From Armatimonadota bacterium (GTDB taxonomy: Bacteria; Armatimonadota; SYMT01), in NCBI GenBank assembly GCA_046292385.1, contig JBKBRF010000044.1, forward strand, positions 1 through 58,554: a stretch of 58,554 bases of DNA, written 5' to 3'. The stretch's first letter is position 1, and every line of letters begins with the position of its first letter. Of this stretch, positions 23,873-58,554 are shown piece after piece. A program made the translations under genes and the position numbers. The notes under the pieces were generated by a model. It was given only the letters and a program-made list of their open reading frames with translations. It had not been told where the DNA came from and searched no databases.

Positions 23873-24072
23873 GAGTGGGCGCAAGGGAGAGTGGGGAGGG
23901 AGAGGGATGAACGATGCAGGATTAGGGATGAATCCGGAACCTCCCGGTACGGGCACTCCTACTCCTTCTCGTTCTCCTTCTCTTTCTCGAAAGCTCGCCG
24001 GGCCGCCGCTGCTTCGGCCAAAAGAGCAACGCTCCCGTAGGCGCTTTCTCCCACCCTCCCTTGCGCCCACTC
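23873..24072. repeat. ~200-nt MITE-like element
   Basis: Perfect 17-bp terminal inverted repeat GAGTGGGCGCAAGGGAG; second copy at 32392-32573. Confidence 0.8.
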
Positions 24073-24091
24073 TCCCTCTCGGTCCGGGCGG

Positions 24092-27226: not shown

Positions 27227-27463
27227 TCCGCCCCGGGGCGCTGGCAGATCTTCCGGTTCGCCGAGTCTGCGGACGGGTAATCTTGTTTGCCGATTTTGCG
27301 TAGCCCGGCCGGCCATGTGGGTATGGTAGCCGCAGCAGGGAACCGAGCGATCGGACTCCGCCCAAGTACCGGGCGACGCCTGGCGGACTCACCTCTCCGC
27401 CGTCCCCTCGTGCGAGCGTCTCGCGTGCCCTGCGCTAGGACTCGGTCGGGAGCGAAAACCCTG

Positions 27464-29206
27464 ATGCCCAGAACTCTTCTTCGTTTCTTCCTCCTGCTCG
27501 GCACCCTAGCTGCGCTGCTCGGCGGCTCTCCCGCGTGGGCGGGGAGCATCGCCGACGACCTCCTGAAAACGATTCAGGAGGCGCCGAATGCCCCCACGCT
27601 CCAGCGCGTGATCGTGCAGTTCAGCGAGCCGGGGGTGAACGGCCACACCCTGGCGGCGCTCTACGGCGGCTCGCTGCTTACGGAGCTGCCGCTCATCAAC
27701 GGCGCCGCTCTCCAGATCCCGCTGGCGAACCTGGACGTCCTCGCGGGGGATGCCCTGGTGCGGCACGTTTCGCCGGACCGGCCGATCTACAAGCAGTGGG
27801 ACTTCGATACGCAGACCACCGGCGCCAGCCAGGTCTGGGCCAGCCCCGGCTACCGCGGCGGCGGCGTGCGGGTGGCGGTGCTCGATACCGGCGTCTACGG
27901 CGGCTCGCACGAGTGGAATACCTTCGGCGGCGCCGGGAGCCGGATCGCCGCGTGGAAGGACTTCGTCAACGGTGAGCCGGCTCCGTACGACGACCACGGT
28001 CACGGCACCCACGTTGCCGGCATCGTGCTGGGGAGCGGGAGCGGCTCCCGCGGCTTCGTCTCCGGCGCGGCGCCGGACGCGGAGCTGGTGGCGGTCAAGG
28101 TGCTCGACAGCCAGGGCAGCGGCTACGCCAGCACCATCATCCAGGGGCTCGACTGGTGCCTGCAGAACCGCGCCTCGCTCGGGCTGCGCGTGATCAACCT
28201 CTCGCTGGGCCAGCGTCCGGGGGAGAGTTACACCACCGATCCGCTCTGCTCCGCCGTGCGGCGCGCGGTGCAGCAGGGCGTGGTCGTCGTTTGCTCCGCC
28301 GGAAACCAGGGCAAAGACGGCGACGGGAAGGTGCGCTACGGCGGCATCTCCTGCCCCGGGATCGAGCCGGCCGCGGTGACGGTCGGCGCCCTCAACACCT
28401 TCGGCACCGCGAGCCGCCGGGACGACGGCATCTGCACCTACAGCAGCCGCGGTCCGACCTTCATCGACCACGTCGCGAAGCCGGACCTGGTCGCCCCGGG
28501 GAACCGCATCGTCTCCGTGCGCGCGCCCGGCTCCACGATGGACGTCGCCTATCCGGGCAACCGGCTCGACTTCGACCCGAGCACGCCGGCGACGGTCGAC
28601 TACTACGTCCTCTCCGGCACCAGTATGGCCGCCCCGCAGGTCGCGGCCACCGCCGCGCTGGTGCTCCAGGCAAATCCGGCACTTGCTCCCAACGCGGTAA
28701 AGGGCATCTTGATGTACACCGCCGAGGAGCTTTCCCTCCGGGATCCCTCCGGCCGCAAGCTGAAGGGCGGGCTCTCCCTGGTGACGCAGGGGGCGGGTGC
28801 GCTGAACGCGCTCGGCGCGGTGGAGATGGCGCTGCAGATCGACGCCTCCGCGCCGGTCGGAGAGCGCTGGGTCGACAAGTCGCTCGACAAGCAGTCCCGC
28901 ATCGGTAAGCAGGTGGTGCAGTGGCGGCGCGAGATCTTCTGGGGCGGCCGGCGCTACTTCGGACGCAAGACCTTCGAGTACCACCAGCTCGCCTGGACGG
29001 AGCAGACCACCTGGGGAGATGACGAGGCGTTCGCGATTGACCAGACCACCTGGTCCGACGACGAGGTAAAGACCACCCAGCCGACCTGGAGCGACGACTC
29101 GGTCTGGGGCGATCAACGGATCTGGGGCGACCAGACGACCTGGTCCGACGATGAGCCGAAGGTGATCGGCGATCCCGGAGACTCGGCAACGGCACCGGGG
29201 CCCTGA
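27464..29206 (+). CDS. Secreted S8 subtilase (AprX-like) with C-terminal Trp/Asp peptide repeats
   Basis: Signal peptide, prodomain, triad VAVLDTG / HGHGTHVAG / SGTSMAAP; start ATG 27464. Confidence 0.93.
   Translation: MPRTLLRFFLLLGTLAALLGGSPAWAGSIADDLLKTIQEAPNAPTLQRVIVQFSEPGVNGHTLAALYGGSLLTELPLINGAALQIPLANLDVLAGDALVRHVSPDRPIYKQWDFDTQTTGASQVWASPGYRGGGVRVAVLDTGVYGGSHEWNTFGGAGSRIAAWKDFVNGEPAPYDDHGHGTHVAGIVLGSGSGSRGFVSGAAPDAELVAVKVLDSQGSGYASTIIQGLDWCLQNRASLGLRVINLSLGQRPGESYTTDPLCSAVRRAVQQGVVVVCSAGNQGKDGDGKVRYGGISCPGIEPAAVTVGALNTFGTASRRDDGICTYSSRGPTFIDHVAKPDLVAPGNRIVSVRAPGSTMDVAYPGNRLDFDPSTPATVDYYVLSGTSMAAPQVAATAALVLQANPALAPNAVKGILMYTAEELSLRDPSGRKLKGGLSLVTQGAGALNALGAVEMALQIDASAPVGERWVDKSLDKQSRIGKQVVQWRREIFWGGRRYFGRKTFEYHQLAWTEQTTWGDDEAFAIDQTTWSDDEVKTTQPTWSDDSVWGDQRIWGDQTTWSDDEPKVIGDPGDSATAPGP
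29003..29152 (+). repeat. Coding repeats QTTW(G/S)DD and xxWGD
   Basis: QTTWGDD, QTTWSDD, QPTWSDD, SVWGD, RIWGD, QTTWSDD. Confidence 0.9.
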
Positions 29207-29224
29207 TCGCCGTGTGCTGACAGT

Positions 29225-31150
29225 ATGGCACCGCAACCGCTCTCCAACCGCCTGCGGGCGTACATCGCGATCCACGTGGGGGCGCTGGCTCCCGCGTGGA
29301 TCGCCGTGTTCACGCTGCTGCCCCCGCCGGACCAGCCGGCTCTGGCGGCAGCGCTGGTGGTGGTGGCTGCCGCGGCGGGCACCTGGCGGATCCAGCTCAC
29401 CACGGAGGGAGGGCGGCAGAGCCTCGCCTTCGCGGTGATCAGCCTGGCGCTGCTGCTGCAGGGCGTCCAGGTGGCGGTGCTGGCCGCCGTGGTGGGGGCG
29501 CTCGCCTCCGACGTGCTGCGGCGGCAGGGCCGCTGGCGCTGGAGCCTCGTGTTCTCCCCGCTCTACCGCCGCGTCTTCAACCTGGCGCACTGCGGCCTGG
29601 TCAGCGCCGTGGCGGGGCTGGTGTGGACCGCGGCGGTCGGGACGTCGGTCCAGGGACCGGCGGAGAAGCTGGCGGGGCTGGTGATCTTCACCACGGTCTA
29701 TTTCCTGCTGAATACGCTCGGGGTCGCCACGGCGATCGGGCTCGACCGGCAGGTGTCCCCACTCGTCGTGTGGCGGGAGCACGTTTTCTGGACCGGCGCC
29801 GCGTACCTCCTCTCCGCCGGAGCGGCGGCGTTGATCTGGGGCGCCTACCAGGCGGTCGGTCCGCTCTCACTGGCGCTCCTGCCGTGCCTCTACCTGGTCT
29901 ACCGGGCCCACTTCGCCTACATCGAGGCGCTCAAGGCGCAGCGGGAGCTGGCGGACCAGGTGCAGCAGCTCCTGCGCCAGGAAGAGGACGCCAACCGCCG
30001 CAAGGACGAGTTCCTCGCCACGCTCGCCCACGAGCTCCGCAACCCGCTCGCGGCGATCTCGAACGCGCACTACGTGCTGGAGCAGCCGGGGGGGCTGACC
30101 GGCGCGCCGCGCTACCTGGACGTGATCGGGCGGCAGAGCCGCCATCTCTGCCGGCTCGTGGAAGACCTGCTCGACGTGTCCCGCATCACGCGCGGGGTGG
30201 TGGAGCTGCGGCCGGAGACGATCGACCTGCGGGACCCCCTCCGCGCGGCGCTCGAGGCGGCGCAGCCGGCGATCCGGGACCGCCGCCACCTCCTGAACCT
30301 GTGCGTCTCCGACCGGCCACTCCCGGCGCGGGTGGATGCGGACCGCGTGGAGCAGGTCTTCGCCAACCTGCTCGGGAACGCGGCGAAGTACACCGACCCG
30401 GAGGGACGAATCGACGTCACCCTGGAGGCCGAGGGGGAAGCGGCGGTGCTCCGGGTACGCGACACGGGAATCGGCATCGACCCGGAGACGCTTCCGAAGG
30501 TTTTCGACCTCTTCGTCCAGGCCGACCGCTCTCTCGCGCACAGCTCCGGAGGCCTGGGGATCGGCCTCACCCTGGTCCGGCAGCTCGTGGAGCTCCACGG
30601 CGGCACCATCTCTGCGCGGAGCGAAGGCCGCGGCCAGGGAAGCGAGTTTACCGTGCGGCTGCCGCTGCTGCCGGCCGGCACGCCGGTCCGCCAGCGCGGC
30701 GCGTCTCCGCCAGGCGCGGCTGCCGCTCCCGCCGCGGCTCGCCCGCCCGGGCGGCCCAAGGTGCTGCTGGTGGAGGACAACGCGGACGCGGCGGAGACGC
30801 TCGCCGAGATGCTGGAGCTCTGGGGCTACGACGTGGCGCTGGCGCTGAACGGCCCGGCGGCGCTGGAGCTCTATCCCGCCGAGCTTCCGGACGTCGCCAT
30901 TCTCGACGTCGGCCTTCCGGAGATGGACGGCTACGAAGTCGCTCGCCGGCTCCGGGGAATGGGCGCGCGCCTGCCGCTCATCGCCCTCACCGGCTACGGC
31001 CGCAGCGAGGAGCGCGAGACCGCCCTTGGCTCCGGCTTCGATCACCACCTGGTGAAGCCCGCCGACCCGGACCAGCTCCGCGCCCTGCTCCGGAGCCTGC
31101 TCTCGCAGACCGCCTCCGCCCGGGAAGTCTCTACCGCCGGACGCGCCTGA
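29225..31150 (+). CDS. Hybrid sensor histidine kinase/response regulator with multi-TM sensor domain
   Basis: About 7 TM N-terminus with RRVFN motif; HELRNPL, NLLGNAAKY, DTGIGI, GLGIGL; REC domain LLVEDN/ILDVGLP/VKP. Confidence 0.95.
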   Translation: MAPQPLSNRLRAYIAIHVGALAPAWIAVFTLLPPPDQPALAAALVVVAAAAGTWRIQLTTEGGRQSLAFAVISLALLLQGVQVAVLAAVVGALASDVLRRQGRWRWSLVFSPLYRRVFNLAHCGLVSAVAGLVWTAAVGTSVQGPAEKLAGLVIFTTVYFLLNTLGVATAIGLDRQVSPLVVWREHVFWTGAAYLLSAGAAALIWGAYQAVGPLSLALLPCLYLVYRAHFAYIEALKAQRELADQVQQLLRQEEDANRRKDEFLATLAHELRNPLAAISNAHYVLEQPGGLTGAPRYLDVIGRQSRHLCRLVEDLLDVSRITRGVVELRPETIDLRDPLRAALEAAQPAIRDRRHLLNLCVSDRPLPARVDADRVEQVFANLLGNAAKYTDPEGRIDVTLEAEGEAAVLRVRDTGIGIDPETLPKVFDLFVQADRSLAHSSGGLGIGLTLVRQLVELHGGTISARSEGRGQGSEFTVRLPLLPAGTPVRQRGASPPGAAAAPAAARPPGRPKVLLVEDNADAAETLAEMLELWGYDVALALNGPAALELYPAELPDVAILDVGLPEMDGYEVARRLRGMGARLPLIALTGYGRSEERETALGSGFDHHLVKPADPDQLRALLRSLLSQTASAREVSTAGRA

Positions 31151-32292: not shown

Positions 32293-32573
32293 GGGTTGGC
32301 AGGTTGCAGGTTAGCAGGTTGCAAGTTGGGTCCGCCGCGCGGAAGCCAACCTGCTAACCTGCCAGCCTGGAAGTGGGCGGGGCTTGGAACTGAGTGGGCG
32401 CAAGGGAGAGTGGGTGAGTGGGAGATCCGAACCTCCGGGTACGGGCACTCCTACTCCTACTCGTTCTCCTACTCTTACTCGAAGGTTCGCCGGGACGGCC
32501 GCTGCTTCGGCCAAGAGAGCAACGCTCGCGTAGGCGCTTGCTCCCACTCCCCCTTGCTCCCACTCCCCCACTC
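32293..32573. repeat. CAGGTT(G/A) heptamer inverted array plus second copy of the ~200-nt element
   Basis: Matches the module at 23766-24072; lies between convergent genes. Confidence 0.8.
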
Positions 32574-32583
32574 AGTCGAGGTA

Positions 32584-49934: not shown

Positions 49935-51089
49935 CTACCGGAGGTCTGGTGAAGGTGGGCGCAGCGTGGCCCGCATCAGCATCACGTTGTACGGGTTCCA
50001 GGTGGAGAGGACGAAGTAGATCGTCGCTTCCTTCTCGTCACCCTTGAAGAAGCGAGGGATGAGGTAGGGGCCGTAGGGGCCGCCGGTCACCCGCTCTCGA
50101 CCGGGGTCGTGCAGCGAGCTCGGGGCCGCGCCGGGCTGGGCGTCGTGGATGAACTTGCCGTAGGCGTCCTGCCACGGATCGAGGAGCGTCCGCGCCTCCG
50201 ACCACGGACCGGCGGGGCGCTCCGCGGTGCGAATGACCACCCCACGCGGATGCTCGAGGTTGTAGAGCATCAGCCAGCGCTTGAGCGGCGCGCACCACGC
50301 CACGCTGAGCTCTCCGATCATCGGGTGGTAGAAAAGCGGGCGCGCCTCCCCTTCCAGCGCGCTCCAGCGCTCGCCGCCGGTCCAGTAGCGGATCGCCGAC
50401 CGGTCCTCTACCTTCTCCAGCGGCACGAAGGCGAGGTACGGATCGCTGCGGCGGTATTCCTTCCCCGCCGCCCACATCAGCAGCCCCTTCCCCTCCTTCA
50501 CCGGGAGACCGGGCACCTCCGCGGCGTCGACCACCGCCGGCGAGACGTTGATGAAGCGGTCGGTGGAGAGGGTGTAGACCAGCTCCCACTGCTTCGCGTC
50601 TTTGCTGCGGAGGAGCACGGAGCGGCCCATGATCTTGCCGCGCGGGCTATCCTGCGCGTCGGTGGTGAAGAACGCATACATGAAGCCGTTGTGGCTGAAG
50701 CCGCCGTTCGGAACCTCGAACCCCTTCAGCGAGACGCCGGGCACGCTCACCGCCAGGTACTTGCCGTCCGGCGCGGTGACGAAGTCGAGCTCCAGCCCGT
50801 CGTCCGGGTTCGTATCGGTGCTGAACGCCACGGAGTCGCCGTCGTACGGGCGGTCCGGCGTGTTCGGCCCGCTCGGGTGCGTATCCCCGAACAGGAAGAC
50901 GAGCTTCCCCTCGTGCTCGAACGAGGCGCCGAGATCGGTGGCGGCGAGCCCGAAGCGGGAGGCGGTGCGGCTGGGAGTAGGGCGATTGAGCTGGCGGTCG
51001 TGCTCTCCCGTAAGCTGGGAGACCTTCTGCACGCTGCCCGGCACCACCACCGGCGTTGCGGCCAGGAGGGCGAGAAAGAGAGTGATCAT
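49935..51089 (-). CDS. Secreted DUF4185-domain protein
   Basis: TDLG......LVFLFGDT, GELSV.W, GPWSE, YGPY, STWNPYNV. Confidence 0.8.
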   Translation of the reverse strand: MITLFLALLAATPVVVPGSVQKVSQLTGEHDRQLNRPTPSRTASRFGLAATDLGASFEHEGKLVFLFGDTHPSGPNTPDRPYDGDSVAFSTDTNPDDGLELDFVTAPDGKYLAVSVPGVSLKGFEVPNGGFSHNGFMYAFFTTDAQDSPRGKIMGRSVLLRSKDAKQWELVYTLSTDRFINVSPAVVDAAEVPGLPVKEGKGLLMWAAGKEYRRSDPYLAFVPLEKVEDRSAIRYWTGGERWSALEGEARPLFYHPMIGELSVAWCAPLKRWLMLYNLEHPRGVVIRTAERPAGPWSEARTLLDPWQDAYGKFIHDAQPGAAPSSLHDPGRERVTGGPYGPYLIPRFFKGDEKEATIYFVLSTWNPYNVMLMRATLRPPSPDLR

Positions 51090-51126
51090 GGTCGGTGGGT
51101 AGAGCGCTCCCTAAGTTTCACTGTTT

Positions 51127-51232
51127 CAGGTTAGCAGGTTTGGGGTTCCAGGTTTCAGGTTGCAGGTTCCAGGTTGGCTGCACCGACGGCGGGGTTTGGA
51201 ACCTGCAACTTGCCAAGCTGCAACCTGCCAAC
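51127..51232. repeat. CAGGTT(N) heptamer inverted array
   Basis: About six CAGGTTN units followed by inverted AACCTGC units directly after a stop codon. Confidence 0.8.
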
Positions 51233-51237
51233 AACCC

Positions 51238-52026
51238 TTAGCTGCTGGCGCTGGAGTAGCTCCGGAGCGCGAAGCGCCAGAAGGCGACCGCCAGCGCGAA
51301 GAGCCCGACCGCGAACCCGGCGGCCACCGCGAGCCACGGCAGCGGCAGCTCCCCCACCAGCGCCCGGGCGGGGAAGCTGGCGACGAAGGCCAGCGGGATG
51401 ACGTAGATGAAGAGGCTCCGGACCCAGTCGCGGAAGATATCGATCGGGTAGCGCGCCACCTGGAACACCACGTCTGCCAGGACCCAGAGGTTCTCGATCC
51501 GGATGAACCAGAAGGCGAGCGTCATGAGCAGGGTGTAGACGGAGAAGTAGATCACCAGCGCGCAGAGGCAGAGGAAGAGGTAGGCGAGCACGGTCCCGGG
51601 CGTAATCCGCGCCGCCAGCGACCCGGTGCTGTAGAGGAGGAGCAGCAGCGAGCCGACGGTGGTGCCGATCCCCTCCAGCCGGACGTAGCGCGTGGCGACG
51701 AAGAAGAGCGAATCGACCGGCCGCGTGACGACGAAGTCGAACGTCCCGAGCCGGATCTGCTCCGGCAGGCGGCTGAGGTTCTGGTAGGCAACCACCCCGA
51801 AGACCCCGTGGATCAGCCCGAAGGTGCCGGTGAGGGAGAGCATCTCCGCCTCCGTCCACCCCGCCACCGCCTCCGTATTGCGGAAGAGGATCTTGATCAG
51901 CAGGACGAAGAAGAGCAGCCACCCCGCGTTCGCCACCAGGTTGGCCCAGAAGTTGGCGCGGAACTCCGCCTCGCGGGCCAGGCAGTTCTCCCAGAAGATC
52001 CGATAGAGGCGCAGGTAGCGGAGCAT
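51238..52026 (-). CDS. ABC-2 family permease (DUF990-type)
   Basis: FRANF, GTFDFVVTRPVD, YPIDIF, IPLAF...PA, YSSASS; start ATG 52026. Confidence 0.88.
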   Translation of the reverse strand: MLRYLRLYRIFWENCLAREAEFRANFWANLVANAGWLLFFVLLIKILFRNTEAVAGWTEAEMLSLTGTFGLIHGVFGVVAYQNLSRLPEQIRLGTFDFVVTRPVDSLFFVATRYVRLEGIGTTVGSLLLLLYSTGSLAARITPGTVLAYLFLCLCALVIYFSVYTLLMTLAFWFIRIENLWVLADVVFQVARYPIDIFRDWVRSLFIYVIPLAFVASFPARALVGELPLPWLAVAAGFAVGLFALAVAFWRFALRSYSSASS

Positions 52027-52133
52027 CAGGCACAGCGCGGCGCCCCCGACCCGGCGCCGGGAGCCCAACCGGGTAAGTGTGGCCCACTCCGGCACGGGCG
52101 TCCACCCGCCCGGCGCGCCCCCCCCCGCGGTGC

Positions 52134-52162
52134 TTGACACCGAACCCGGCGAACGCTACAAT
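52134..52162 (+). promoter_or_regulatory. Sigma70 promoter of tRNA-Gly
   Basis: TTGACA, 17-nt spacer, TACAAT. Confidence 0.9.
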
Positions 52163-52173
52163 GAGCCCGTTCC

Positions 52174-52245
52174 GCGGGGGTAACTCAGTGGTAGAGTCAC
52201 TGCCTTCCAAGCAGTTGGTCGCGAGTTCGAATCTCGTCCCCCGCT
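52174..52245 (+). tRNA. tRNA-Gly(TCC), CCA not encoded
   Basis: Acceptor GCGGGGG/CCCCCGC, D arm ACTC/GAGT, anticodon stem ACTGC/GCAGT with loop CTTCCAA, T loop TTCGAAT. Confidence 0.96.
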
Positions 52246-52284
52246 TACCCGCGACGTGCCGTTTCCCATTTCAGGCACGAAATA

Positions 52285-52407
52285 GAGTCACTACCCCCTG
52301 TGCTGCCGGCTCCTTTCGACACCTTGAAGGAGCCTGTAGATGCCAAACAGAGTCACTACTTCCCGGGGCAGACGAGTCACTGCTTCCGAGGATGATAGAG
52401 TCACTAC
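52285..52407 (+). repeat. Four GAGTCACTRC direct repeats (candidate integrase arm sites)
   Basis: Cores at 52285, 52350, 52374, 52398; fifth copy inside the tRNA at 52194. Confidence 0.85.
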
Positions 52408-53404
52408 CTCTCGTCGGACGGAAGAACGCCCCTCCCGCCCCCCGTCCGACCTGCGCCGAGCAATTGCCGGCTGGCTTGCAGACGGCAAAGCCCAGGGCTG
52501 GAGTCCTCGTACCCTAGAAGACCGCCGTCTTACGATGGAACGGTTCTGCTGGTGGCTGGAGAACGAGGAGGAACCCCCTCTGGCGTTAAGCACCCTCACC
52601 CCCAACTGCATCCGCACGTTTCTGGCTTACGTTCGTGAGCCAAATCCGAACGGGCGATTCGGGTGTGAGCGGGAATCCGCCAAACGGGAAGCACGACCCG
52701 CAACCGTGAACGCGTACTTCCGCGCCCTGCGTGCCTTTGCCAATTTCTGCCGGGCAGAAGGGCTGCTGGACGAAACACCGTTGAAGAACGTCAAAGCACC
52801 TCGTGTGCCGGTTGACCAAGTACAGCCCCTCGCGCCTGATCAGCTTCAAACCCTCGTGGATGCCGCCAGGCGCACACAGGCCTCAGAGCGGAACGTCGCG
52901 CTGATTCTCCTGCTCGTGGATACCGGGATGCGCTGTTCAGAACTATGCGGTCTGCTCGTAGGCGACGCGGACCGAGGCACGGGCGAGTTAACTGTCACGG
53001 GCAAGGGCAACAAGAAGCGGCGGGTCTACATGGGCACAGCTACTCGCCGAGCCCTCTGGCGCTACCTCGAAACCGACCGGAGAGACGCATTCACGGACGA
53101 ACCCCTGTTCGTCTCCGTGGGAGGGCACGCTCGCGGAACCGGCATGACGCACACCGGTGTTCACCGGATCATTCACGAAGCCGGCAAGGCGGGTCGCATA
53201 CAAGGGGTGCGCTGCAGCCCCCACACCCTGCGCCACACCTTCGCAGTCAACTTTCTACGCGGCGGAGGCAACCTCTTTGAGCTTCAGCAGTTGATGGGAC
53301 ATACGGACCTCACAGTGCTCCGCAGGTATGTCGCTCTCGCCGACACCGACCTCGCCGAGGCGCACCGCGCCGCCAGCCCCGTCGAACGCCTGAAGCTTCG
53401 GTAG
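52340..53404 (+). CDS. Tyrosine recombinase/integrase
   Basis: DTGMRCSEL, GKGNK, HTLRHT, MGH, RRY catalytic residues; GAAGGAG RBS. Confidence 0.95.
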   Translation: MPNRVTTSRGRRVTASEDDRVTTSRRTEERPSRPPSDLRRAIAGWLADGKAQGWSPRTLEDRRLTMERFCWWLENEEEPPLALSTLTPNCIRTFLAYVREPNPNGRFGCERESAKREARPATVNAYFRALRAFANFCRAEGLLDETPLKNVKAPRVPVDQVQPLAPDQLQTLVDAARRTQASERNVALILLLVDTGMRCSELCGLLVGDADRGTGELTVTGKGNKKRRVYMGTATRRALWRYLETDRRDAFTDEPLFVSVGGHARGTGMTHTGVHRIIHEAGKAGRIQGVRCSPHTLRHTFAVNFLRGGGNLFELQQLMGHTDLTVLRRYVALADTDLAEAHRAASPVERLKLR

Positions 53405-53425
53405 ACGGGCGAAACGCCCGCTATC

Positions 53426-53458
53426 AGCTCCCGGCCTTCGAGGCCGGGGGCTTTTTTT
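53426..53458 (+). terminator. Rho-independent terminator after the integrase
   Basis: AGCTCCCGGCCT/AGGCCGGGGGCT stem followed by a T tract. Confidence 0.85.
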
Positions 53459-53530
53459 CTGACTCCGTGTAGGAAACCCCCATCAGCTCAGCCATAAGGC
53501 CGTGAAAGCAATTGCTTCAGGGGACCGACG

Positions 53531-53803
53531 TTGAGCAGAGACCGCCCGTTTGCAGCACGACGCCAGGAACTCGGCTTGTGCCTACAGCGGGCAGCGGCCA
53601 GACTCCGGATCAGTGCTAAATATCTGCGAGCACTGGAACGGGGGCAGGTACCACTCTCCTACTCACTGGCGCGACGGATGGCCGTCGAGTACAGCACCAC
53701 CGTTGATCTCCTGACGCGTACCGCTGGTAGAGACCGAGCCGGAAGCACAGGGGATGGGCTGAAAGCGAATGGGAACGCTTTCAGCCCACAGAGAAGCAGC
53801 TAG
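53531..53803 (+). CDS. XRE-family helix-turn-helix protein
   Basis: RRQELGL....AAARLRISAKYLRALERG pattern; TTG start. Confidence 0.7.
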   Translation: MSRDRPFAARRQELGLCLQRAAARLRISAKYLRALERGQVPLSYSLARRMAVEYSTTVDLLTRTAGRDRAGSTGDGLKANGNAFSPQRSS

Positions 53804-54385
53804 CCGCGCCTTCGCACCTTTCTTGCGTTATGCCGCTTGGGTTCGGCACAACGCCTCCTACCGACAGGAGAGGACGACGCCAGAGAAAGCCACTCCGGCG
53901 AGACAGCACAGACAGCCGTTCATGAAGCGGCAGAGATTCCGACAGGTAAGGCCTTCGGCTGCTGCCTCTTGAGGAGTCGCCACCGTCAGCAGCGCGAGCG
54001 CCCCTGTGCCAGCCTCTCATCCTCTCTGTCCACCCGCCGGCACTGACCCGCCGGCATCCTACTCCGGTGGAGGCTCCACACCCCCGGCTCGGTTGCCAGG
54101 ATGAGCCTTGTCCGGTGCCAGTGGCCCGCCAGCAGCGTTGCAGCTAGCCTCCGCACATCCGCGCGGCAACCCTCACCACCGTCTTCTGGAGGCACTGAAG
54201 CGGCTACCTGCCGGCCCTCGCAGCACGATCTTTCTCGGAACGAAGCGCAATCAAATGCTGCCAAACCCTAAACTCTAATCGCCCACACATACGATAGCTT
54301 AGGTGGAAGCACCCATAGACGGCTCCCAGGCAGAACCCGAGGCCATCTATGAAAACCCGCCCCTGATGAGGTAGGAGGAACAGAC

Positions 54386-54673
54386 ATGCCCGCCAAGAAA
54401 ACCCCGAGTCCGACTGAACAGGCCCTGAATGGCCTCATCCTCAAGAAGCTGGAGGGGCATCCGAATGGGCTCACCCAGACGCAGCTCATTAGCAAGTTTC
54501 GTTCCCCTGACGTGTACGGCCCGCGGTACACGTTCCATCCGAACGCTATCAAGAAAGCGGTTGCCCGACTTGCGGAGGACGGGCGGGTAGAGTTAAACCC
54601 CGACCGGACATTCACCGATCTGCGCGTTCGACTTCTGCCGGCTGTGAAGAATGAGGAGGCCGCCGATGTCTAG
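54386..54673 (+). CDS. Small winged-helix-like protein
   Basis: GGAGG RBS; ILKKL...PNGLTQTQL...IKKAVARLAEDGRV; overlaps the primase start. Confidence 0.7.
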   Translation: MPAKKTPSPTEQALNGLILKKLEGHPNGLTQTQLISKFRSPDVYGPRYTFHPNAIKKAVARLAEDGRVELNPDRTFTDLRVRLLPAVKNEEAADV

Positions 54674-56453
54674 TGCCATCCTCGAACCGCATGGCTGTGT
54701 AGCCGTGCGGCCACAGCCAGAGGATGAGGCGCGCCAATTCCTCTCCACGTTGTTTCCCGCCATGCCTCATGGTGGCAGGCTCCTTATCTGGACCCTACCT
54801 TCAAAGTGCTCGACATGGTGTACCTCGGCAGAGGGAGCCATGACGGCTGTGGAGCGCGCTCGTGCCGAGTCGGATGTCTACTTCGGCCTTGCCTTGTCTC
54901 CGGAGGGGTACGGCAACAGGCAGCGGTGCACGGCTGACGCCGTTATCGCCGTCCCCGGAGTGTGGGCTGACGTAGACCTGGGCGATGAGGGGCACAAGCA
55001 GCATAAGAAACCGAACCCGGCGAATTGGGAAGCGGTTCGAGCGGCTTTGGACGATGCGGAGGTTCCCGCTCCTACCATCGTCGTGGCGAGCGGCGGAGGG
55101 CGGCATGTCTACTGGCTGTTTCCCGAGGTTTGGCAGTTCGGTACGGATGAGGAACGCCAGCAGGGAGCTGCCCTGGCAGAGCGGTTTCAGGGCGCGCTTC
55201 GGGCTATCTTTGCCAAGCACGGTTGGAACCTGGACGCGACTGCAGACTTGTCGAGAGTTCTGCGCGTGCCAGGGACGTTTAACCGGAAGGATGCGAGCAA
55301 CCCGAAGCCCGTACAGCTCCTCACCGCTGACGGCCCCCGCTACTTGCGGGAAGACCTGGAGGCATTCTGTGAGCGGTTCGATGCGTCTTCGACACAGTAT
55401 GTCAGGCGGACTCGACAGGAGAGCGCCATAGCTGAAGTGATGGTTGCTGAAGACCTGGAGCTTGACCCGCATGCCGTCGTTGACCCAGACATGGTTCTAG
55501 CCCTCTGCGATGCCAACCCGAAATTCCGCGAGTCATGGGAGCGAAAGCGTAGTCGGAATGAGTTTCCGGATCAGAGCGGCTCCAGTTACGACATGAGTTT
55601 GGCAGTCCTTGCCGCGCAAGCGGGCTTGTCTGATCAGGACATCATCGACCTGCTCATTGCCCACAGGCGCAAACACCGCGACGACCTGAAGCTCCGGCTC
55701 GACTACTACCGGAGAACGCTGAAGAGGGCGCGCCAAACGTGCGCTAGGGGCGGGCAGACTGCCTCCTTGGACACCCTAACAGACCTGCATGCACAACTGA
55801 CGGCAAGCGGCGCAAAGCTGGAACACGAAGACCGGGCAGCTATCCTGCGGGAACTGGAGGAGCTGTTCGGCTTTAGTGCGCGCATCCTGCGCATCGTGCG
55901 CTACCCGGGGACAAACCCCACCTTCGTCCTTGAGACCGATCAGGGACGGGTACACCTTGGGGGAGTGAGAGGGCTAACCCGACAGGACCAGTTACGAGAG
56001 CATGTGCAGGCACACCTTCGGCAAACCCTCCCGCGCTTCAAGATAAAGGACTGGGAAGAACGTATCGTGCCGGCCCTTCTCGCGGTGCTGGAAGACGAAG
56101 ACCTGGGCGAAGAAGCCACGGAAGAGGGTGAGACGAGGGGCTGGCTGTGTTGCTACCTTGAGGAATACTCGCCGGAGGAGCGCCAGGCGGATGACCAGCC
56201 GTTTTGGAAGATCGCCGAGAGCCATTCAGGCGATGCGCCGTTCCTGTTGGGAGAGCACGCCCATATCTCCGTCCGGTCCTTCAAGGAGTGGGTGCAGCGC
56301 CACTACAGGGAGTACGCCCTTATCACAGAGCGCACGCTCGCTATGAGACTGGAAGGGGTGGGTTGCAAGCATGTGTCGAAGACCTACACCAAAGGAAACG
56401 GCAAACGGGGTAACCGCAAGTACTGGGTGCTTCCCTCACTCTTCGAGTGGTAG
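54666..56453 (+). CDS. RepB-type (AEP superfamily) DNA primase/replication protein
   Basis: WADVD, VVASGGGRHVYW, DLSRVLRVPGTFN; helical DQSGSSYD domain; GAGGAGG RBS before ATG 54666. Confidence 0.85.
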   Translation: MSSAILEPHGCVAVRPQPEDEARQFLSTLFPAMPHGGRLLIWTLPSKCSTWCTSAEGAMTAVERARAESDVYFGLALSPEGYGNRQRCTADAVIAVPGVWADVDLGDEGHKQHKKPNPANWEAVRAALDDAEVPAPTIVVASGGGRHVYWLFPEVWQFGTDEERQQGAALAERFQGALRAIFAKHGWNLDATADLSRVLRVPGTFNRKDASNPKPVQLLTADGPRYLREDLEAFCERFDASSTQYVRRTRQESAIAEVMVAEDLELDPHAVVDPDMVLALCDANPKFRESWERKRSRNEFPDQSGSSYDMSLAVLAAQAGLSDQDIIDLLIAHRRKHRDDLKLRLDYYRRTLKRARQTCARGGQTASLDTLTDLHAQLTASGAKLEHEDRAAILRELEELFGFSARILRIVRYPGTNPTFVLETDQGRVHLGGVRGLTRQDQLREHVQAHLRQTLPRFKIKDWEERIVPALLAVLEDEDLGEEATEEGETRGWLCCYLEEYSPEERQADDQPFWKIAESHSGDAPFLLGEHAHISVRSFKEWVQRHYREYALITERTLAMRLEGVGCKHVSKTYTKGNGKRGNRKYWVLPSLFEW

Positions 56454-56605
56454 CGGGTAAGAGCGGGTGAAGCGGGTTAAGCCCTATTATAAGGCGAAAA
56501 GAACCACTCGCTGAATCACACGCGAACCCGCTTCACCCGCTTCACCCGCTTCACAGGCACGGGAAAAAAGCCTAACCCGCTTCACAACTCGCTTCTATCC
56601 GCTTC
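56452..56605. repeat. Iteron-like 9-mers: putative replication origin
   Basis: AGCGGGT x3 (56452, 56462, 56471), AT-rich spacer, then inverted ACCCGCTTC x4 (56526, 56535, 56544, 56575) plus two variants (56587, 56597). Confidence 0.8.
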
Positions 56606-57130
56606 AAATCCAATACGACTCATTGGCGTAAACCATGGGGGTAAGATCCACGCCCTATAGTAGGGGAGGCGAGAGAGTTGCCTCTCTCGCCGTAATGTGA
56701 GCTGAAGGCCCGGAGGCGTGCTTCGCATGTGCGTGAGACAACCTGGGGCGAAATGCGGCCCCACACCGACGAAACCGAGAACCACGGCAGCGACATCAGC
56801 ACCGATAACGCGGGAGCCAATGAAAGAGAGCTGGGGGAGGAGATCGAGCAATGCCGGTTGCCGTGCGAGACCGCAGGCGGCGGGAGGACCGCAACGCGGT
56901 GGAAACGCTGCCGGCCTGTTGGCGTGACCGTTAAAACGAGAGCCTCATGGGCTGCGAGTAATTGTTATTGCTATTCCTGCCTGGCGAGGCCGAAGCTCTG
57001 GAACGCTGCAAAAATTGGGGGAGGGGGCATCTTATCGACCCCCTCCCCCTTTCGCCGTCCGCATTACTTCGCAGATAGGTTCCAGGCGGCTCCTAGTCGG
57101 GCTGCACTTGACTTTCAAACTTGCTGGTTG

Positions 57131-58306
57131 TCACCGGCTCATCATCTCGTCAAGAACCGCAGCGGATACTTGCGCTCTGGCGTGTGCCTGTTGCGCTCTC
57201 TCCAGCGCAGCCCTATCCCCCGTCTGCAAATGGTCTCGCAGGTGCATAGCTGATTCCCGGGTGGCTTGGCCCCAAGATGTAAAGGCGGCCAGGAATTGCT
57301 GCCCTGCGGGATGGCGCGTCATAGGATCGTTCGACCTCTCTTGGAGGTATGCTTCGCCGGAAGCAATTCCCGCCTCGGTCGCTCCCACAAAGTCGTCAAC
57401 AGCAGCTTGCGCCTCGCTGTTGGAAGCTTGAGGACCTGCTGGAGCGGACATGACGATTTGGAGCATCTGCTGATAGTCGTTCTCGGCTGTCTGTGAGAAG
57501 GAGCCACCACTGCTGACGCGACTCGGCGGTGCCACCGTGGCCGCATTCGGAAGTGACTGATAATCCGCGGCATGCCCGGTCATCTGCCTGCCCGAATGGC
57601 GCTCGGCAGTTGGCTGGGCGACTGTAGCTCCGCTGATGCGCCCGTGCCGTAGCTGATAGCCGATAATCGAGTGTTCGGCCAAGATACCTCGGACCGTCAC
57701 AGACTGCCCCTTGATGAGGGAGAGTAACGTGTCCTTCTGTGAGCCATCAAGTTCGATCCTCACATCCGACCCATAGCTCTTGGGATTGCATCGAAGGCGC
57801 AGCATTCCCCCACCTTCGATGGACGCATCTCGAAGTTCACCTGTCCAAATTACTTCCGTTCCCTGTACAGACTGCCAGTAAGCCTGCTTCTGCGCGTCAG
57901 TCAGAGTTGTGCGCCGATCATCCATGACGGCATCCACGGTCATGAAGTGAGGACCGGGGTTGGCTTTATTCACTCCGAATCGCGGAAGGTCTAACGGGCC
58001 GCGCCCACGGGCAATGTTGAGCAGTGAGAGGCTGTACCACAATCCCACGCCAGCGACGACGATTATGACACAACCACAGATCACCTGAAGCGCGCTGCAC
58101 GCAAGTTGGCGTTTCACGCCTGCTATTGCCACATCCTGTAAAGGATGCACCGCAGGCGCAGGCGTCGCGCTGGGCTGACCGGGACTTCCCGCCTCACCTG
58201 CTTGGCTCTCTGAAGCCAACACGCCTCGCACACAGTAGGCGCAGAGGCTCCGCTTCGTATCCATAGGACGACCGCACTGGGGGCAGGGGCGAAGTGATTG
58301 TCCCAA
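57131..58306 (-). CDS. Membrane protein: Zn-ribbon, TM, OB-fold-like domain, helical C-terminus
   Basis: CPQC...CAYC, hydrophobic helix, GTEVIWTG..KGQSVTVRG; GAGGAGG RBS before TTG. Confidence 0.75.
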   Translation of the reverse strand: MGQSLRPCPQCGRPMDTKRSLCAYCVRGVLASESQAGEAGSPGQPSATPAPAVHPLQDVAIAGVKRQLACSALQVICGCVIIVVAGVGLWYSLSLLNIARGRGPLDLPRFGVNKANPGPHFMTVDAVMDDRRTTLTDAQKQAYWQSVQGTEVIWTGELRDASIEGGGMLRLRCNPKSYGSDVRIELDGSQKDTLLSLIKGQSVTVRGILAEHSIIGYQLRHGRISGATVAQPTAERHSGRQMTGHAADYQSLPNAATVAPPSRVSSGGSFSQTAENDYQQMLQIVMSAPAGPQASNSEAQAAVDDFVGATEAGIASGEAYLQERSNDPMTRHPAGQQFLAAFTSWGQATRESAMHLRDHLQTGDRAALERAQQAHARAQVSAAVLDEMMSR

Positions 58307-58537
58307 GGCGCAACCTCCTCTCGCTCCGATCCAAGCATCACCAGAGGCGACGCAAGTCTATTTTCGACTATTCCAACTTAAACTCTACCATTGTGGCCGG
58401 AACGCTGCCACAATGGAAAAGTCCGTCTTCACGCCGAGCTACCATCAGAAGGTGTGTAAACGGTGAAGGCGGTGAACCTTCCTTCTAGAGACTAGAAGCA
58501 GCCGAGGGCCAACTCGGCAAAGGAAGGAAACACCGCC

Positions 58538-58554
58538 ATGAAAGAGATTACCGC
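58538..58554 (+). CDS. Start of a CDS truncated by the window end
   Basis: AAGGAAGG followed by ATG AAA GAG ATT ACC. Confidence 0.4.

Follow-up and report, generated by a model that had tools for sequence, protein, structure and literature searches.

Can an exported protease be the outside partner of a sensor kinase that carries no domain of its own outside the membrane? This question is raised by two neighboring genes in a 58,554-nucleotide stretch of contig JBKBRF010000044.1 (here called the window). The first encodes an exported S8 (subtilisin-family) protease with a Trp-rich C-terminal tail, and the second encodes a hybrid histidine kinase with a MASE9-type membrane input domain. Besides the domain make-up of the two proteins, we found that their linkage is conserved in related genomes, that the two genes are inherited jointly, and that outputs are swapped around a constant core of protease and MASE9 domain. 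The protease and the MASE9 sensor probably form one undescribed signaling unit. Both proteins are of known families, clearly so for the S8 protease and the hybrid kinase and at the borderline for MASE9; we found no paper on the pairing in the literature, the supplements of the MASE9 preprint aside. The features of the pair are as follows.

27464..29206, + strand: exported S8 (subtilisin-family) protease gene, 580 amino acids plus stop (open reading frame and translation; Pfam PF00082)
27464..27541, + strand: signal peptide, residues 1-26, ending AWA/GS with the cut between (assigned by eye from the sequence)
27542..27793, + strand: I9-like N-terminal propeptide, residues about 27-110 (AlphaFold2 and Foldseek; putative cleavage site)
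27794..28843, + strand: catalytic domain, residues about 111-460, with D141, H180, N281 and S387 (Pfam, alignment)
28844..29173, + strand: C-terminal tail domain in a Trp-hexapeptide register, residues about 461-570, ending in a conserved I-G-D (Trp spacing, alignment, model confidence)
29003..29152, + strand: six W[GS]D units, residues 514-563 (QTTWGDD, QTTWSDD, QPTWSDD, SVWGD, RIWGD, QTTWSDD)
29174..29203, + strand: short, nonconserved C-terminal extension PGDSATAPGP beyond the conserved G-D (alignments; model confidence 41)
29207..29224, + strand: spacer of 18 bases between the protease and kinase genes (stop codon 29204-29206, next ATG at 29225)
29225..31150, + strand: MASE9-type hybrid histidine kinase gene, 641 amino acids plus stop (open reading frame and Pfam)
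29225..29920, + strand: MASE9-like membrane input domain, residues 1 to about 232, with 7-8 hydrophobic segments (Pfam MASE9, hydropathy)
30002..30667, + strand: HisKA (residues 260-324, H269) and HATPase_c (residues 371-481) (Pfam)
30761..31090, + strand: receiver domain, residues 513-622, D561 (Pfam)

The first-pass annotation of this DNA had described a secreted S8 protease with an intact triad, and this proved correct. The protein is a member of Peptidase S8 with its Asp-His-Ser triad in place: PF00082 matches residues 132-431 with 178.7 bits (cut-off 21.8), and D141 (LDTGV), H180 (HGTHV), the oxyanion Asn N281 (SAGNQG) and S387 (GTSMAAP) are all invariant in an alignment of 42 sequences. 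Its start is an ATG nested in a longer, TTG-started frame (27287-29206, + strand), and the N-terminus reads by eye as a Sec signal peptide. We modeled the full-length protease with AlphaFold2 on the 42-sequence alignment and obtained a mean predicted local distance difference test (pLDDT) score of 88.1 and a predicted template-modeling score of 0.81. In this model, the protease has a subtilisin fold with an N-terminal propeptide, the latter seen as a beta-alpha-beta unit at residues 46-104 followed by a low-confidence hinge at 107-110. Its closest solved structure in Foldseek is pro-Tk-SP (PDB 3afg, E 4.9e-34, 31% identity), and many subtilisins are also among the best matches. The family is very large, with 6786 of 8000 scored candidates at E <= 0.001; some relatives are labeled AprX, and where a source is named it is Acidobacteria, Vicinamibacterales or Armatimonadetes. 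Two specialized identities were rejected on their NCBIfam scores: a cyanobactin PatA/PatG maturation protease (TIGR03895, 36.4 bits against a cut-off of 421.05) and a mycosin of type VII secretion (TIGR03921, 132.8 bits against 278.75).

The second gene begins at the ATG 18 bases past the protease stop, where the annotation had placed it. Its product is a hybrid histidine kinase with acceptor His and Asp in place, H269 within HELRNPL and D561 within ILDVGLP (HisKA, 56.2 bits; HATPase_c, 103.6 bits; Response_reg, 84.5 bits). Hydropathy places the hydrophobic segments at residues 12-35, 36-57, 64-100 (double), 117-143, 148-174, 190-208 and 210-229, linked by loops of a few residues, and a Pfam scan of the kinase found no PAS or GAF. 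This agrees with the annotated multipass input without those domains, and the kinase reads as a sensor without an extracytoplasmic domain. The membrane domain is a borderline MASE9 on the Pfam model (PF20972, cut-off 24.3), scoring 23.0 bits on the kinase protein and 25.9 bits in a six-frame genome search; F118, N119, N163, T164, W183, W189 and T190 are conserved in alignments of the sensor domain. In the sections of the MASE9 preprint used here, the ligand of the domain is given as not known and binding as probably within the membrane (Galperin and Chou, bioRxiv 10.1101/2021.11.05.467447).

Linkage and joint inheritance

In a first survey of 24 relatives of the protease in related genomes, the next gene shared the membrane domain of the kinase in four cases. 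These were an in-genome paralog (G000:C30, a hybrid kinase, 55% identity), a kinase (G004:C44), a protein in which the membrane domain is joined to HD-GYP, GAF and GGDEF (G001:C5) and, in another family, a protein in which it is joined to HD-GYP (G009:C26, MASE9 31.6 bits). We then built a sensor profile from five membrane domains, all of them protease linked, and searched 401 genomes of the phylum, 120 of which contained a match; the matches include Acidobacteriota isolates whose genomes are complete, such as the g54 genomes. As the linkage set we used the 60 best-ranked MASE9-like matches from genomes other than the window's, each extended by 5 kb in both directions. An S8 relative of the window protease lies within 5 kb in at least 34 of these 60 loci; the count is a lower bound, as about 10 of the 26 unpaired loci end at contig ends. 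Complete pairs were recovered in 30 of the 34. The sensor precedes the protease in 17, the protease precedes the sensor in 11, and the two lie on opposite strands in 2 (locus L077 was corrected by eye); the gaps between the genes range from 26 to 1277 bases. All 30 complete S8 neighbors carry Trp repeats in their tails.

The outputs of the paired sensors vary. Among the 34, we found 27 with HD-GYP-GAF-GGDEF, 2 with HD-GYP only, 2 with SpoIIE/PP2C and 3 histidine kinases; PAS-histidine kinase-receiver is among the architectures seen in relatives. The MASE9-like domain is thus N-terminal and fused to varied outputs among the relatives, as is typical of MASE9. The annotation had predicted that tail-bearing S8 genes would be enriched beside the same membrane domain with varied outputs, and the 34 loci with their four output types bear this out. 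Fourteen of the 60 sensors pass Pfam MASE9 at E <= 1e-5 (26.9-37 bits), and 7 of the 14 are paired. The SpoIIE/PP2C fusions lie at L052:956-2491 and L060:4956-6560, each adjoining a Trp-tailed S8 gene.

The same association is seen within the window's genome, which holds four Trp-tailed proteases, five MASE9-like genes and 15 S8 matches in all. Three of the five MASE9-like genes, all of them hybrid kinases, adjoin a protease, while two genes of about 800 amino acids do not; the chance of finding such a protease in a random 10.7-kb span of this genome is 0.7%. The other two pairs lie at G000:C30:54334-57983 and G000:C38:30298-34823. The genes of the latter are 870 bases apart, and no open reading frame was seen in that gap on the strand of the genes. 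Across 41 related genomes, all 14 that bear the protease (E <= 1e-60) also hold a MASE9-like gene, as do 7 of the 27 others.

The 30 complete pairs have no conserved third gene (the family that came closest is present in 6 loci), and no response regulator with a DNA-binding domain is conserved in the paired loci. The 60 sensor loci contain no free-standing Trp-repeat open reading frame. In 5 of the 30 paired loci (for example, L076:6285-7091 and L078:4081-4893), there is a gene whose product of about 270 residues has a prepilin-type N-terminus; it lies between protease and sensor in two of the five. At L015 (G003:C16), L021 (G002:C281) and L032 (G031:C3), two Trp-tailed S8 genes stand in tandem, and the contig has no listed MASE9-like gene. 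With P0001 as the locus query, we obtained 4 related loci, 3 of them without a Trp tail. A homolog search with the MASE9 part of the kinase gave one other match (P0122, 30% identity) among the 8000 scored candidates richest in shared words, and we suspect that common membrane-segment words may have crowded out true MASE9 relatives in that search. In a look across phyla, we found no MASE9-like match in the four genomes behind loci L093 to L096.

To what extent have the two genes traveled together? Across 32 pairs, tree distances between the catalytic domains correlate with those between the MASE9 domains at an r of 0.86, a value that none of 2000 permutations reached. The nearest neighbor is identical in both trees for 15 of the 32 pairs, and each tree places the window pair as sister to the pair at G005:C8. 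Because the protease and MASE9 trees agree, the pairs have been duplicated and inherited as units. This agreement is a sign of long-standing linkage, not of interaction. A check suggested in the annotation was whether tail and sensor sequences co-vary, and here we found no clear signal: with the catalytic domain controlled for, the profiles of the tail units correlate with the sensor at a partial r of 0.13, matched by 129 of 2000 permutations in what is a liberal test. A complex prediction with MASE9 residues 1-245 and the mature protease (residues 111-580) scored 0.00 against a mark of 0.32, without controls, and counts neither way.

The Trp-repeat tail

What kind of element is the tail? The six short Trp units annotated at its end are present, and their six W[GS]D motifs lie inside 56 residues, whereas the maximum in 20000 whole-protein and 20000 tail-only shuffles was 3. 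The stretch before them had been called a basic linker. This description did not hold: the stretch belongs to the tail repeat, because Trp 487, 493 and 511 keep the six-residue register of the units. The Trp residues of the tail stand at positions 487, 493, 511, 517, 530, 542, 548, 554 and 560 (spacings 6, 18, 6, 13, 12, 6, 6 and 6), and W487, W511 and W517 are each conserved in at least 90% of the 42 homologs. At the DNA level, the six units are 71-86% alike, which points to a diverged, old repeat and not to a fresh expansion.

In a tail alignment, the window tail matches unit for unit the perfect hexapeptide tails of close relatives (DQMTWG in L076, DTVLWG in L017 and L020, and DSVLWG in L015). 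Throughout this close clade, the number of units is equal, a Trp-less middle unit (DNGVxGD) is conserved, and so is the end motif h-x-G-[DE], where h is hydrophobic. Almost every listed homolog has C-terminal Trp repeats, such as DNIVWG, DQALWG, DTVLWG or RAVWGS. In the full-length AlphaFold2 model, the pLDDT of the tail is 81-94 at residues 461-550, about 57 at 551-570 and 41 at the end; residues 477-499 form four strands, each 4 residues long and repeating at intervals of 6-7 residues, and the structure beyond them is mixed. Within the whole protein, the modeled tail looks folded. Given the conserved Trp positions, the unit-for-unit alignment and the pLDDT of 81-94 at 461-550, the tail looks like a selected protein domain on a six-residue Trp register and not like a string of identical peptides.

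We found no match between the window tail and a Pfam repeat family, PF00132 and PF21300 included, at E <= 1. Two very regular relatives with DNIVWGE-type units, P0095 and P0073, do match LbR_Ice_bind (PF21300) with 49.1 and 32.2 bits (cut-off 30), and Hexapep (PF00132) occurs in 10-16% of the members of Atlas clusters near the tail. A tail profile searched against 1.84 billion cluster representatives matched 924 of them at E <= 0.001. Of 144 proteins checked among the 150 listed, 49 had a full S8 domain, 29 had a C-terminal piece of one and 66 had no S8 detected; by eye, the last group consists of gene fragments and Trp-less hexapeptide-type repeat proteins. Because the matches include such proteins, the tail profile is not specific enough for a census.

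The tails of the homologs vary in several ways. Most (P0009 to P0037; L034 to L092) end in a hydrophobic-x-G-[D/E] motif followed by 0-2 residues, often with DLSSTA before it, and members of the window's clade have a short variable extension beyond this end. Poly-proline stretches replace the middle tail units in P0012, P0014 and P0018. A Tyr/Pro/Glu-rich repeat of the YYEPY type follows the tail at L077:5770-8106 (G005:C1). An uncultured Acidobacteriota protease (L093:5701-6126) has about 20 DGILWG units running up to its stop, and there is no MASE9-like match in its genome.

Readings of the pair

How might an exported protease and an intramembrane sensor act together? According to the portion of a review used here (PMC8534201), an accessory protein is often needed by kinases that lack an outside domain. 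Our favored reading, which we put forward tentatively and as something short of probable, is that the exported protease, probably by way of its Trp-rich tail, is the extracytoplasmic partner of the MASE9 sensor. The protease would leave the cytoplasm by Sec, shed its N-terminal propeptide and act outside. The kinase, with the MASE9 domain as its sole input, would depend on the co-encoded protease as its outside partner, and the state of the protease or of its tail (present, engaged or processed) at the outer face of the cytoplasmic membrane would be read by MASE9 inside the membrane. The readout would be a His-Asp phosphorelay here and c-di-GMP (cyclic di-GMP) turnover or PP2C phosphatase activity in relatives. 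That the protease and MASE9 stay constant while the cytoplasmic outputs are interchangeable suggests that the coupling lies at the input side, in the membrane domain. From these data, we infer joint action of the two proteins, an inward direction of the signal and the tail as the part that contacts the sensor.

Several observations weigh against this partnership. On its periplasmic side, MASE9 offers only very short, poorly conserved loops, so that docking of a folded protein is harder to picture. The isolated regular tail of a relative was modeled with a pLDDT of only 40.8 and no fold could be assigned to it. The protease-linked seeds of the sensor profile may tilt the count of 34 in 60 toward a linked subfamily, and, the related genomes not being independent, the support from trees and co-occurrence is overstated. 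Counted from the protease, the linkage is weaker: of 46 matches to it at E <= 1e-60 in 41 related genomes, 15 have a listed MASE9-like match within 5 kb, and several proteases stand in tandem arrays with no sensor. The Acidobacteriota genome G401 (completeness not known) encodes a protease with a DGILWG tail but gave no MASE9-like match at E <= 1e-5.

A more specific possibility is that the Trp-repeat tail, whole or as self-processed pieces, is itself the MASE9 ligand, so that enzyme, precursor and signal would come from one gene. We regard this as unlikely. If it were true, a sensor family that includes kinases, c-di-GMP enzymes and PP2C phosphatases would read the state of a secreted protease.

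The annotation had gone further and proposed a peptide-signaling system in which the protease is both precursor and maturase, cutting itself into QTTW(G/S)D-type Trp peptides that serve as ligands of the MASE9 kinase. Such a system would serve quorum sensing or the readout of protease activity, and it predicts the observed linkage to MASE9 with each of the four kinds of output. Model confidence is low for the last two units and the C-terminal end (pLDDT 41-57), several subtilases have C-terminal extensions that are removed by self-processing, and short amphipathic Trp peptides would, on general grounds, partition into the membrane interface, the proposed ligand site of MASE9. However, the units are not copies of one peptide, and those of the in-genome paralog include QQAWSP, QLFWGA, STTWTG and QAAWND, among others. 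The number and order of units are fixed in the close clade, with the conserved Trp-less middle unit and end motif, and the confidently modeled residues 461-550 hold four of the six units. By eye, the tail alignment shows no conserved cleavage motif beside the units; the unit profiles do not clearly track the sensor (partial r 0.13, 129 of 2000 permutations), and the 60 sensor loci lack a free-standing Trp-repeat frame. Of the annotated proposal, then, the link to a membrane sensor stands, while the pro-signal cut into QTTW(G/S)D peptides is improbable in the face of diverse units, a conserved tail and the pLDDT of 81-94.

Might MASE9 instead detect the products of proteolysis outside the cell, or a change in the membrane, with the tail merely anchoring or stabilizing the enzyme? 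The linkage and tree data fit this explanation too, and the triad counts in its favor, being intact in the window protease and invariant in 42 homologs. However, digestion sensing leaves unexplained why the S8 partners are Trp tailed without exception (30 of 30), though the genomes hold many other S8 genes, 15 in the window's genome. We therefore give this explanation a low probability.

The direction could also be reversed, the sensor reading a membrane cue and controlling the production, export or activity of the protease, either through transcription or by a holding mechanism like that of LapD-LapG. In its favor are the adjacency and probable co-transcription of the genes, the predominance of c-di-GMP enzymes among the partner sensors, and LapD-LapG as a precedent for a periplasmic protease paired with a membrane c-di-GMP protein. 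In that case, however, a target gene ought to change with the output pathway, whereas four unrelated outputs keep the same protease and membrane domain, and neither a DNA-binding response regulator nor any other third gene is conserved in the loci. Control in this direction seems to us an unlikely explanation of the pair. That there is no functional tie at all and the genes simply co-travel by descent within one phylum is very improbable: although all counts come from one phylum whose genomes are not independent, the pair is kept despite both gene orders, spacers of 26 to 1277 bases and four output types, and a chance of 0.7% per locus in the window's genome stands against 3 of 5 observed.

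If the link of the favored partner reading is functional, an exported protease would be added to the few accessory proteins that supply intramembrane sensors with input, and the uncataloged Trp-hexapeptide tail would gain a function. Protease secretion would also be tied to phosphorelay and c-di-GMP control in Acidobacteriota, a dominant and poorly studied soil phylum. MASE9 is a widespread sensor without a known signal in the sections of the preprint used here, and a conserved protease partner gives an experimental entry point to it (bioRxiv 10.1101/2021.11.05.467447).

Surroundings and known systems

From their arrangement, the protease and kinase genes are probably co-transcribed; the 18-base spacer contains no promoter-like or terminator-like match. 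DNA contigs of sequencing runs X4 and X5 span the junction. An RNA-library run (X11, share 0.10) yielded contigs of 170-333 bases with about 93-97% identity to parts of both genes. None of these crosses the junction, and DNA carry-over is possible, so they show neither expression nor an operon. The neighboring genes in the window (SulP, glyoxalase, YihY/BrkB, PIN and glutamate dehydrogenase) are unrelated to the pair, and an Rfam search of the whole window found tRNA only, with no riboswitch near the pair. An element of about 150 bases occurs in two direct copies, 87-90% alike, at 23937-24084 and 32429-32577; they flank the pair and lie 8.49 kb apart. The element is a dispersed repeat, with 93 blastn matches genome-wide for a 200-base query. 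The right end of the window (50001-58554) has a G+C of 0.59-0.63, down from about 0.70, and carries a tRNA at 52174-52245; an island boundary may lie here.

How does the pair compare with systems already described? On the protease side, Tk-SP of Thermococcus kodakarensis (PDB 3afg, 9ues) is also a subtilase with a C-terminal extra domain. Its alignment spans about 455 columns of the 580-residue model, and we take the tail as the unmatched part, no aligned range being reported. The C-domain of Tk-SP is a beta-jelly roll and not a Trp hexapeptide repeat. The beta-helix or beta-roll families Hexapep (PF00132) and LbR_Ice_bind (PF21300) share the six-residue register of the window tail, but the invariant Trp per unit that the tail has lies outside the pattern of either family.

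The sensor corresponds to the preprint's description of MASE9 (PF20972) as an N-terminal multipass domain with very short loops, fused to signaling outputs (bioRxiv 10.1101/2021.11.05.467447). The HD-GYP and HD-GYP-GAF-GGDEF architectures given there are the commonest partners here, whereas the HisKA-HATPase_c-receiver output of the window and the SpoIIE/PP2C outputs of relatives are not named for MASE9 in the sections used. Those sections, which exclude supplementary figure S5, mention neither a protease neighbor nor a ligand.

The Agr and Fsr systems (AgrB/AgrD/AgrC; FsrC with the peptide GBAP) likewise have a protease gene beside a multipass membrane kinase, and a peptide ligand is conceivable here as well, going by the portion of the review used (PMC8534201). 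However, the window tail behaves as a conserved domain. We rejected an Agr/Com-type system as such. There is no separate small precursor gene, as the spacer is 18 bases, the neighbors are unrelated and the 60 related loci contain no small Trp-repeat frame; nor is there an AgrB-like membrane endopeptidase, the only protease being a soluble, Sec-exported S8 enzyme. In LapD-LapG, too, the gene of a periplasmic protease adjoins that of a membrane protein with c-di-GMP domains. The protease, LapG, is a cysteine enzyme, and LapD, which carries a docking domain in the periplasm, transmits its signal outward from the cytoplasm. Unlike LapD, the membrane domain here has almost no periplasmic surface, and its cytoplasmic modules are interchangeable.

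The closest parallels to the partner reading are BceS-BceAB and LiaS-LiaF, as described in the same portion of the review (PMC8534201). In both, as in the window, the kinase lacks an extracytoplasmic domain, and a co-encoded partner is proposed to take over perception of the stimulus. Their partners are transporters or membrane proteins, whereas the candidate partner here is an exported serine protease. In a further difference from BceS-BceAB and LiaS-LiaF (PMC8534201), one and the same kind of candidate protease would partner histidine kinases, c-di-GMP enzymes and a PP2C phosphatase alike.

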